DNA of 64,000 nt from Escherichia coli. Its GTDB lineage: Bacteria; Pseudomonadota; Gammaproteobacteria; Enterobacterales; Enterobacteriaceae. A model generated the notes under the pieces. It was not told the origin of the DNA. It was given only the letters and a program-made list of their open reading frames with translations, and did no database searches. Positions 30,237-31,998 of the stretch are shown here, in pieces. Every line of letters starts with the position of its first letter. Within the stretch, counting starts at the first letter, position 1. The stretch lies in assembly GCF_003790525.1 (NCBI RefSeq), contig NZ_CP033635.1. One strand, 5' to 3'. The translations under genes were made by a program, and so were the position numbers.

Positions 30237-30244
30237 TAAAGACA

Positions 30245-30278
30245 AGGCGCAACCTTCACGGGTTGCGCCTGTGTTTTT
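30245..30278 (+). terminator. intrinsic terminator after mdtK (overlaps ydhQ stop)
   Basis: stem aggcgcaacc / ggttgcgcct, 6-nt loop, then GTGTTTTT. Confidence 0.6.
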
Positions 30279-31533
30279 ACGCAGGCTGGAGCGTTGCGCC
30301 AATCCCGTCTTCGTCTGGCTGTAGTTTCAGTGCGTTACACAGAGTTTGCCGACTGGCATCTGTTATCTCAACGTGTATATCACCAGTAACTTCCCCTTTC
30401 ACATTGATGAAGTCAGGTGAAATTTCTTTCGCACTGGTTTGCAGGCAAATCGCTCCCTCTCCGCGCAGGCGTTTCACTTTAAGTTGCACATGCGTTGCCG
30501 CACCAGTGATTAGCCACAGTTTTCCGCCATTGAGATTGATGTTACCAACACTGAAAGTGACACTGTCACCTTTTATCGTACTGCCGTCGAGAATCAATAC
30601 ACCGCCCTGCTGTACAGTAATCGTTGATTGTTGCAGATCTGCGCCATAGCCAATAATCATTGAAGCGCCGTCCAGTAATGCAACACTACCGGTCAGTTCA
30701 ACCGGTGCGCGATCTTCCTCTACGACAAAATTTTCGTCCGCGCTGGTGGGTGACAACAGGATCACTGTCCCACCTTGTATTACCGCATTTTCCAGCGTAC
30801 CGGCATGCACTTCAGCCCGACCACCCACATTAACGGACAGGTTTTGCGTCTTACCGGAACTGTAGAGCTGAAGACCATCCGTCCCCAGACGATAGATGGC
30901 TCCATTCTCAACAATAGTGTCAGAGTCTTCACCACCGAGATTATTCATGGTGCCACCAGCAAGCAACGTATCATTGGCTTTCCCCGCCAGCATAAAAACG
31001 CCGCCCTGATTAATCTCACAATTGCTGGCTTCCCCACCTGGATACACCAACAATTCACCACCTTCATCTACCACGACCGCTGAGGTTGTCCCATTGACCA
31101 ACAGGCCACCCTCTTGATCGAGAATAATTTTTTCCGCGCGATGGCCTTCCAGTACACGCAGGTTACCGCCATTTTCCAGCAACAAACCGCAGGCATAACC
31201 TTTATCAACGCTGAATTCACCTTCGGGATGGCGGCCATTAACCGTAGCGAGCGTAGAGAGACTAATTGCGCCTCCCTCGGACTGAACAATATCTGTGGCA
31301 ATGGCACCGTCGCTGACCGATAGCGTGCCATTGTTGCCGTACTGTGTGCATTTGGCGATCCCACCGGTTGCCACTTTCAACCAGCCAGCCCCCGTGACCA
31401 CGGTATTTTCGGCTCTTCCGCCAGCCTCAACAATTAACTCGCCTTCAGTAAGTTGCGTCGCGCCAATGACCTCGCCGGTCTTAACAATTTGCACGTTCCC
31501 GTCGCTCATCAAGTTTTTCGCATCAGATCCCAT
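30277..31533 (-). CDS. ydhQ: autotransporter-passenger-like (AIDA/pertactin-type repeat) protein
   Basis: 418 aa ORF rich in G/T/N/V repeats; no N-terminal signal peptide or C-terminal barrel visible; recognised as YdhQ. Confidence 0.88.
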   Translation of the reverse strand: MGSDAKNLMSDGNVQIVKTGEVIGATQLTEGELIVEAGGRAENTVVTGAGWLKVATGGIAKCTQYGNNGTLSVSDGAIATDIVQSEGGAISLSTLATVNGRHPEGEFSVDKGYACGLLLENGGNLRVLEGHRAEKIILDQEGGLLVNGTTSAVVVDEGGELLVYPGGEASNCEINQGGVFMLAGKANDTLLAGGTMNNLGGEDSDTIVENGAIYRLGTDGLQLYSSGKTQNLSVNVGGRAEVHAGTLENAVIQGGTVILLSPTSADENFVVEEDRAPVELTGSVALLDGASMIIGYGADLQQSTITVQQGGVLILDGSTIKGDSVTFSVGNINLNGGKLWLITGAATHVQLKVKRLRGEGAICLQTSAKEISPDFINVKGEVTGDIHVEITDASRQTLCNALKLQPDEDGIGATLQPA

Positions 31534-31840
31534 GATTTATTCCTTTGCTGCATCTGTGTGCCTTTATTGCTACCTAAGTGTAAAGGCTACGAAGGATTTA
31601 TCCACGACAGATTTGAGATGGTGGCAAACAACTCTGTTTAAACTCTGATACACGGATTATTGGGTTGTATCAGATGTAAATGCGATCCTGAATAAAAATC
31701 GCCCTTGCAAATCAACAAAATATAGCCAATTTGCTTAAAAGCTCTGCAAACGGTCGAAATAACGCAGAAAATTACGTTTTGCCTCTTGCCACCTTCCCAC
31801 TCTGCCGCTAATATTCGTCCCCGTTGTCACCTACAACGTT

Positions 31841-31917
31841 GCGTTCATAGCTCAGTTGGTTAGAGCACCACCTTGACATGGTGGGGGTCGTTGGTTCGAG
31901 TCCAATTGAACGCACCA
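31841..31917 (+). tRNA. valV: tRNA-Val (anticodon GAC)
   Basis: 77-nt cloverleaf: GCGTTCATAGCTCAGTTGGTTAGAGC D-arm, anticodon loop CTTGACAT, GGTTCGAGTCC T-arm, encoded CCA. Confidence 0.95.
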
Positions 31918-31921
31918 TCCT

Positions 31922-31998
31922 GCGTCCGTAGCTCAGTTGGTTAGAGCACCACCTTGACATGGTGGGGGTCGGTGGTTCGAGTCCACTCGGACGCACCA
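31922..31998 (+). tRNA. valW: tRNA-Val (anticodon GAC)
   Basis: second 77-nt copy 4 nt after the first (GCGTCCGTAGCTCAGTTGGTTAGAGC...ACGCACCA); weak hairpin plus T-run follows at about 31995..32030. Confidence 0.95.

Follow-up and report, generated by a model that had tools for sequence, protein, structure and literature searches.

ydhQ of Escherichia coli: a conserved, passenger-derived beta-helix protein lacking leader and translocator, with a probable role in the cytoplasm

The 64,000-nucleotide stretch of Escherichia coli DNA analysed here (contig NZ_CP033635.1, assembly GCF_003790525.1; the whole stretch is called the window, and coordinates refer to it) carries on its minus strand the gene ydhQ, which an earlier reading made from the letters alone (the sequence-only reading) had described as a repeat protein resembling the passenger domain of an adhesin. 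The ATG-initiated open reading frame (ORF) encodes 418 amino acids (aa) with the N-terminus MGSDAKNLMSDGNVQIVKTGEV, as quoted in that reading, and a product with a computed mass of 42.8 kDa and isoelectric point (pI) of 4.44. It matches the NCBIfam equivalog model for YdhQ with 942 bits against a cut-off of 830 over positions 1-418 of 418, and is the already known E. coli gene. With 100% identity over 2 kb, the window is assigned to strain SMS-3-5. Its neighbours are cfa, ribE, mdtK, ydhR, ydhS and ydhT. The mdtK gene is convergent, with 40 nt between the two stop codons, and a pair of tRNA-Val(GAC) genes lies 308 nt upstream of ydhQ on the opposite strand. No integrase is found among the window ORFs or in their RefSeq annotation. 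The features of the locus are collected in Table 1.

Table 1. Features of the ydhQ locus, in coordinates of the window
Feature	Position	Strand	Residues	Basis and remarks
ydhQ coding sequence	30277..31533	-		418 codons and stop; NF007409; RefSeq 'AIDA repeat-containing protein'
AIDA/Ag43/TibA-like beta-helix coils	30889..31458	-	26-215	Pfam AIDA x3, PDB matches, TIGR04415
Acidic loop SPTSADENFVVEEDRAPVELTG	30688..30753	-	261-282	Conservation, low pLDDT
Truncated pertactin-type autochaperone	30325..30549	-	329-403	PF03212 positions 1-78/121
Bidirectional terminator-like hairpin between the ydhQ and mdtK stops	30245..30270			GC-rich stem of 10-11 bp, T-runs on both strands
Shine-Dalgarno AAGGA	31538..31546	-		Invariant in orthologs
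Candidate σ32 promoter TTTAAA-N13-CACCATCT	31616..31642	-		-10 box ends 82 nt before ATG
Escherichia-specific insert, ~1.5 kb	30237..31745			Terminator, ydhQ, ~210 nt 5' region
valV-valW tandem tRNA-Val(GAC)	31841-31917, 31922-31998	+		ARAGORN; divergent from ydhQ

The resemblance to adhesin passengers is borne out by the domain content and by the relatives described below. The Pfam AIDA profile (PF16168) matches YdhQ in three stretches (97 bits), and the Pertactin profile (PF03212) matches toward the C-terminus, just over its first 78 of 121 positions; the protein ends 15 residues past this match. The strand-loop-strand repeat TIGR04415, a target of O-heptosylation, is found in two stretches with 42.3 bits (cut-off 30), a match at the level of sequence only. 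A search of the PDB sequences with YdhQ returned Ag43 (7ko9, 7koh, 4kh3) and TibA (4q1q). The repeats are old, degenerate and structural; there is a weak residue periodicity of about 18, 36 and 54 (z 3-4), and no tandem repeats were detected in the DNA of ydhQ by Tandem Repeats Finder. YdhQ residues 5-161 also match the PHROG family phrog_21473 (947 positions, function unassigned) with 122 bits. A phage function suggested by this match is disfavoured; the family may be an Ag43-like, prophage-borne one, since its length is close to that of the NCBIfam Ag43 model (948 positions), in which case the presumed donor family would have mobile relatives. PADLOC, which covers anti-phage defence, gave no match for YdhQ.

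A structural model fits the same assignment. The AlphaFold2 model, computed from a 21-sequence alignment, is an all-beta solenoid with a mean predicted local distance difference test (pLDDT) score of 90.2 and a predicted template modelling score of 0.87, and it shows the long beta-hairpins typical of the pertactin autochaperone region. Only residues 1-6 and 264-275 are of low confidence; the latter, within the acidic loop, have pLDDT <50 and are predicted to be disordered. The top Foldseek neighbours of the model belong to the same passenger families (Ag43 with an E value of 2e-11). YdhQ is thus modelled as a soluble, acidic, right-handed beta-helix derived from a passenger, a view that we hold as part of an overall explanation judged probable below.

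An exhaustive HMMER search over 1.84 billion representative sequences recovered 536 relatives. A single cluster, YdhQ itself, exceeds 50% identity; the remaining relatives are long proteins, mostly of 1,000-6,000 aa, at about 30% identity. When complete, they consist of an extended signal peptide region (ESPR)/Sec leader, AIDA repeats, a full 121-position Pertactin/AC_1 region and a PF03797 beta-barrel, and their Pertactin match covers profile positions 2-120, as against 1-78 in YdhQ. In one of them, P0098, residues 77-489 align with YdhQ residues 7-395, after which P0098 runs into the rest of the autochaperone and the barrel. This layout and this alignment indicate that YdhQ corresponds to the C-terminal ~400 residues of a passenger of this kind, with one cut after the leader and the first coils and the other two-thirds of the way through the autochaperone. 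The nearest full-length relative, P0026 (1534 aa), has 38% identity, and as none is closer, no recent donor is identified. Five candidates for independent leaderless homologs (P0112, P0125, P0115, P0065 and P0042) were rejected; each is a piece of an ordinary autotransporter, and several have signal peptides.

The secretion signal is missing, as the sequence-only reading had stated from the non-hydrophobic N-terminus. Within the first 60 residues of YdhQ the highest 10-residue Kyte-Doolittle mean is 1.19; the leaders of five relatives that were checked reach 2.3-2.4 in four and 1.74 in the fifth. The first 10 residues have a net charge of 0, and a basic n-region is absent. Stop codons close all three frames in the 307 nt 5' of the ATG, so that a mis-called start does not conceal a leader. 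SignalP 6.0 likewise predicts no signal peptide for YdhQ (PMC13101318). The C-terminal beta-barrel, whose absence had also been noted, is lacking too: YdhQ has no Pfam match to PF03797, and a barrel hidden Markov model (HMM) built from seven relatives had no match in the six-frame translation of the whole window. A separately encoded translocator, which would have spoken against the sequence-only reading, was therefore not found within these 64 kb. Of the defining features of a type Va autotransporter, YdhQ has the beta-helical passenger; signal peptide, complete autochaperone, and linker and barrel are absent. With three of the four missing, YdhQ should not be filed as type Va, and the label "leaderless autotransporter" used in recent literature does not fit.

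The gene is nevertheless constrained throughout the genus. Orthologs from E. ruysiae, E. sp. E4742, E. marmotae and E. albertii (E. fergusonii was left out of the set) have 90, 87, 83 and 80% identity, respectively, and each is exactly 418 aa long; the most distant ortholog, from a further lineage, has 72% identity and 419 aa. All begin with MGSDAKNL, end with the same C-terminus and share the gene order ydhR - tRNA-Val - ydhQ - mdtK - ribE - cfa. The ratio of nonsynonymous to synonymous divergence (dN/dS), calculated by the method of Nei and Gojobori against the window sequence or over all pairs, is 0.07-0.13 for ydhQ against the window sequence, with an all-pairs mean of 0.106; for comparison, mdtK and cfa have 0.01-0.02 and ydhR 0.05-0.18. 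Regional values do not exceed 0.52, nor 0.32 outside the 25-residue N-terminus, the truncated autochaperone and the C-terminal tail included. The large region under the strongest constraint is that of the beta-helix coils (0.06-0.11). The acidic loop, which is longer than the corresponding stretch of the full-length relative P0098, is near-invariant across the genus in an alignment of 10 orthologs (0.00-0.10). Synonymous divergence among the orthologs is 0.2-1.1, rising to 2.7 (saturated) for the 72% ortholog. Within the species, the locus is present at a coverage of at least 80% in 5,419 of 5,426 complete E. coli genomes (99.9%). By these comparisons of sequence, the short form of ydhQ is ancient: it goes back to the E. 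albertii split or further, and selection has maintained it. Rare singleton alleles of E. coli (P0003, P0007-P0009, P0012, P0014 and P0015) carry differing in-frame internal deletions of 16-48 residues, which lie between glycine-rich coil motifs, leave both termini in place and look like slippage between beta-helix coils.

The boundaries of the segment that carries ydhQ can be placed by comparison with outgroup loci anchored on MdtK in Salmonella, Enterobacter, Leclercia and Pseudenterobacter. The valV-valW pair is present in all four genera, with the mdtK stop 150-410 bp from valV and a different hairpin at the 3' end of mdtK. Homology to the window reaches as far as the mdtK stop codon, breaks off there and restarts near 31745, in the conserved valV promoter region. 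These breakpoints define ydhQ, the terminator hairpin and ~210 nt of 5' sequence as the Escherichia-specific insert of Table 1. Neither ydhQ nor a remnant detectable by tblastn occurs between mdtK and valV in any of the four genera, and a full-length ancestor, for which the sequence-only reading had proposed a search, is absent from the same loci. The insert has a GC content of 0.50-0.54, like its neighbours, and no meaningful terminal direct or inverted repeats. A 14-nt inverted repeat of 86% complementarity, between 31614-31627 (TTGCCACCATCTCA, the σ32 -10-like box) and 31786-31799 (TTGCCACCTTCCCA, the valV -35 box), may be due to chance or may be a trace of the formation of the insert junction. 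The ~150 nt adjoining valV (31700-31840) are almost invariant in all Escherichia lineages and in the outgroups, unlike the rest of the ydhQ 5' region. Since ydhR is also missing from Leclercia (locus L009, 8833-10443) and Pseudenterobacter (L010, 9146-10756), where ydhS follows directly after the tRNA pair, it may be another addition of the Escherichia lineage.

The tRNA-Val pair had been called a typical island target, with core genes on both sides and no integrase, and the first part of this claim is correct in general: the valV-valW locus is an integration hot spot in several genera, with type III secretion genes of Salmonella pathogenicity island 2 on the 3' side of the tRNAs in Salmonella (L007, 8835-15362) and type VI secretion genes on the same side in Enterobacter (L008, 10791-15305). 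The core flanks and the missing integrase were confirmed as well. The insertions in other genera lie on the 3' side, however, whereas ydhQ lies on the 5' side; with no integrase, no terminal repeats and no GC anomaly, ydhQ does not have the marks of a tRNA-linked island.

A candidate σ32 promoter precedes ydhQ. It has 11 of 13 matches to the consensus TTGAAA/CCCCATNT (spacer 13-15 nt), a score equalled in 8 of 500 shuffled sequences (1.6%), and TTTAAA-N13-CACCATCT is identical in K-12; a simple scan for σ70 promoters found no site on the ydhQ strand. Published work places the gene in the heat-shock regulon. ydhQ was among the σ32 targets of earlier chromatin immunoprecipitation on microarrays (ChIP-chip) and other methods, and was re-detected at the ydhQ-valV spacer (PMC2996942); it is listed in the RpoH regulon (PMC2710865), and it is upregulated with dnaJ, grpE, lon, ybbN, ycjX, ycjF and yhdN when misfolded antibody fragments build up in the cells (PMC2868799). 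YdhQ has been seen by label-free proteomics, at a level 5.5-fold lower with vanillin (PMC6561319). The transcript is CsrA-responsive with predicted CsrA motifs (PMC5389547), and, counted from the ATG, there are GGA motifs at -69, -9 (within the Shine-Dalgarno sequence) and +4. A genomic SELEX (systematic evolution of ligands by exponential enrichment) peak of FlhDC has been reported in the ydhQ-valV spacer (PMC9962212).

These observations are best explained, and probably so in our judgement, if YdhQ is an exapted, cytoplasmic, heat-shock-induced beta-helix, the second of two possibilities raised by the sequence-only reading, which had mentioned a beta-helix protein with a cytoplasmic role. 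Apart from the σ32 control (PMC2996942; PMC2710865), it is favoured by a 2026 study in which reporter fusions of YdhQ without an added leader were cytoplasmic and active (PMC13101318), and by the copurification of YdhQ with EF-Tu (PMC2672614). In outline, the insert would have entered the chromosome of the Escherichia ancestor in the interval that separates the mdtK stop from the promoter of valV, bringing a fragment that would derive from the last ~400 residues of a passenger of the AIDA-I/Ag43/TibA type (type Va). The fragment either came already truncated or was trimmed before the genus diversified. Purifying selection has since held ydhQ at exactly 418 codons. Transcribed as part of the σ32 heat-shock regulon, the gene would supply a protein that stays in the cytoplasm, because it has no entry into Sec and no pore is possible, and that would serve as a stress-induced binding scaffold. 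Many of the invariant residues are charged and would sit on the surface of the helix; this conserved charged surface and the acidic loop would engage a cytoplasmic partner, possibly the translation machinery. A loop that is near-invariant, yet largely predicted to be disordered, is typical of an interaction motif.

Several points weigh against this view. The cytoplasmic localisation rests on fusions rather than on native YdhQ, and fusions equipped with an exogenous signal peptide were reported to be displayed at the surface (PMC13101318), although such display could reflect periplasmic leakage, as YdhQ lacks a barrel and an artificial leader was needed. ydhQ has been said, second-hand, to be needed for early adhesion, and positively selected sites have been reported in it (PMC9110714); the name YDHQ also appears in a list of COG3468 proteins from vesicle proteomes (PMC10458587). 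No phenotype of ydhQ is known, and two laboratories have used its deletion as a neutral control or integration site (PMC6962156; bioRxiv 10.1101/2023.03.28.534373). The σ32 signal in ChIP-chip at the ydhQ-valV spacer was modest, at 1.4 (PMC2996942), and E. albertii and a ruysiae-like strain have a weak form of the -10-like box that three other Escherichia lineages retain. In E. coli AR_0013, the one examined among the very few complete genomes that lack an intact copy, an ISEcp1 family transposase insertion splits ydhQ (L013, 1675-4592).

As to the partner, YdhQ is possibly linked to translation by two high-throughput observations prone to false positives, the copurification mentioned above and its recovery as one of 17 unannotated proteins in an RNA-binding proteome obtained by orthogonal organic phase separation (OOPS; PMC11066096). 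EF-Tu often contaminates affinity purifications, OOPS gives false positives, and YdhQ is unlikely to bind RNA directly because it is acidic; these points, too, count against the translation link. A more specific proposal, that the passenger was exapted as a σ32-induced cytoplasmic rod that docks on the translation apparatus (EF-Tu, for example, or complexes associated with the ribosome) and acts there as a scaffold or as a mimic of nucleic acid, is prompted by both recoveries, the low pI and the σ32 regulation. It is a speculation to which we assign a low probability; if it held, YdhQ would modulate translation or protein quality control under stress.

As an alternative to the cytoplasmic beta-helix, YdhQ could have remained an adhesin, brought to the surface along a non-classical route, be it leaderless export, translocation in trans via a paralogous barrel, or vesicles. 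Its closest folds are self-associating adhesins, it has been cited as required for early adhesion, with positive selection of a kind common in surface proteins (PMC9110714), it is named among the proteins of vesicle proteomes (PMC10458587), and the leader-added fusions were displayed more than constructs without the scaffold (PMC13101318). The same study, however, found the fusion in the cytoplasm unless a signal peptide was added, so that the display depends on an artificial leader and may be leakage into the periplasm. YdhQ itself lacks signal peptide, barrel, linker and complete autochaperone, and it is controlled by σ32 alongside cytoplasmic chaperones. Surface adhesins are usually more variable in sequence and length, whereas ydhQ combines a dN/dS of about 0.1 with a length fixed over the genus. 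For translocation of a separate passenger in trans, we know of no established type Va mechanism. A surface role is judged unlikely.

Still less likely is a second alternative, in which YdhQ remains in the cytoplasm as a substrate, decoy or partner of the machinery that handles passengers of self-associating autotransporters (SAATs) before export, with AAH/TibC-type heptosyltransferases or nascent paralogous passengers as candidates. AAH/TibC-type transferases glycosylate AIDA-type repeats in the cytoplasm, and YdhQ both exceeds the TIGR04415 cut-off and retains the autochaperone-proximal part of a passenger. These transferases, like AIDA-I and TibA, are accessory and often borne on plasmids or islands, whereas ydhQ is core to the genus. 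To our knowledge, K-12 has neither AAH/TibC-type transferases nor AIDA-I/TibA, and no such transferase is encoded among the ORFs of the window. The proposal also offers no link to the σ32 regulation.

The first possibility raised by the sequence-only reading, a remnant passenger domain, holds for the passenger-derived origin and fails for its implication of decay. Were ydhQ a fossil without function, left by the degradation of an autotransporter gene and open as an ORF by chance, this would account for the truncated architecture, the lack of a laboratory phenotype and the viability of the strain with the insertion in ydhQ. Against it, the exact frame is kept in at least five Escherichia lineages despite the synonymous divergence that separates them. 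When the 277 substitutions between E. coli and E. albertii were placed at random in simulations, only 0.02% of trials retained an open frame of 418 codons. The gene occurs in nearly all complete E. coli genomes, its protein has been detected and its expression is regulated. Since frame, length and termini are kept genus-wide at a dN/dS of about 0.1, decay is rejected, and a reading as fossil or pseudogene, which had very little probability left, is effectively refuted. A wrongly annotated start, with a leader encoded upstream or in another frame, is effectively excluded, as no supporting point was found, all three upstream frames are closed, and every ortholog has the same ATG, Shine-Dalgarno sequence and MGSDAKNL start, in contrast to the divergent sequence farther upstream.

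The cytoplasmic beta-helix proposed for YdhQ can be set beside known systems. SAAT passengers, i.e., those of Ag43 (4kh3, 7ko9, 7koh, 7kob), TibA (4q1q) and AIDA-I, are recognised by AIDA-type repeats together with structural similarity to solved passengers, and YdhQ has both. It shares with them the ~19-residue AIDA repeats of PF16168, 21-23% identity in structural alignments and the conserved hairpin region GxxxGxFxVxxGxAxxxLLExGGxLxVLxGHxA. It differs in lacking the signal peptide, the N-terminal part of the passenger, the linker and the barrel, in its incomplete autochaperone, in its cytoplasmic location according to the published fusions, and in being regulated by σ32, constant in length and under strong purifying selection throughout the genus. 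The full-length autotransporters of AIDA type (P0026; P0098/P0115; P0075; P0121) align colinearly with YdhQ along the ~400 C-terminal residues of their passengers; ESPR/Sec leaders, complete Pertactin/AC_1 regions and, in those of complete sequence, PF03797 barrels are theirs and not YdhQ's. The pertactin-type autochaperone (PF03212/PF18883) is represented in YdhQ by the like of its first 78 positions, the last third being missing. In secreted passengers the complete autochaperone nucleates folding at the cell surface, whereas in YdhQ its remnant is conserved in a protein that would fold in the cytoplasm.

Two further comparisons rest on regulation and on shape. The orphan members of the σ32 regulon ycjX, ycjF, yhdN, ybeD and yciS are, like ydhQ, listed σ32 targets that are co-induced under misfolding stress; their folds are unrelated, and only YdhQ is derived from a passenger and restricted to Escherichia. 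The pentapeptide-repeat proteins Qnr and HetL are also acidic, rod-like beta-helices of the cytoplasm, and they appear as weak Foldseek matches (E 0.03-0.07, ranks 22, 24 and 41). Their repeat type and helix geometry are different and they have no sequence relation to YdhQ, so that the likeness is one of analogy, not of membership.

Two genes beyond the tRNA pair were examined in passing. ydhS (32538-34135, plus strand) is split in the window into ORFs of 381 and 117 aa, and RefSeq flags a frameshift; it is intact, with 534-536 aa, in the loci of E. marmotae, a ruysiae-like strain, E4742, E. coli AR_0013, Leclercia and Pseudenterobacter. ydhT (34147-34959, minus strand) encodes 270 aa, the C-terminal two-thirds of which consist of short degenerate units of the form ..SxRIxSxG.. 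and are suggestive of a second beta-helix. The Pfam scan gave no match for ydhT, yet its orthologs carry a precomputed match to YdhT_N.

The ydhQ gene, the annotation of its AIDA repeats, the missing signal peptide and the σ32 regulation had been published before. The present analysis adds the dating of the truncation before the radiation of Escherichia, the quantification of purifying selection for every part of the protein, the precise boundaries of the insert together with the absence of an ancestor at the locus, and the placement of the C-terminal cut inside the autochaperone, along with the conserved acidic loop. ydhQ is popular as a "neutral" site for deletion or integration and has been promoted as a display scaffold; for both uses it matters that the gene is conserved, belongs to the heat-shock response and has no translocator. 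The general view is that passengers must fold vectorially on the surface side of the outer membrane; YdhQ, with two-thirds of an autochaperone, apparently reaches its fold inside the cytoplasm. Should a cytoplasmic role linked to stress be borne out, YdhQ would be a natural case of an adhesin domain cut from its secretion context and kept inside the cell through the diversification of a genus, a domain of a secretion system repurposed as an intracellular heat-shock factor.

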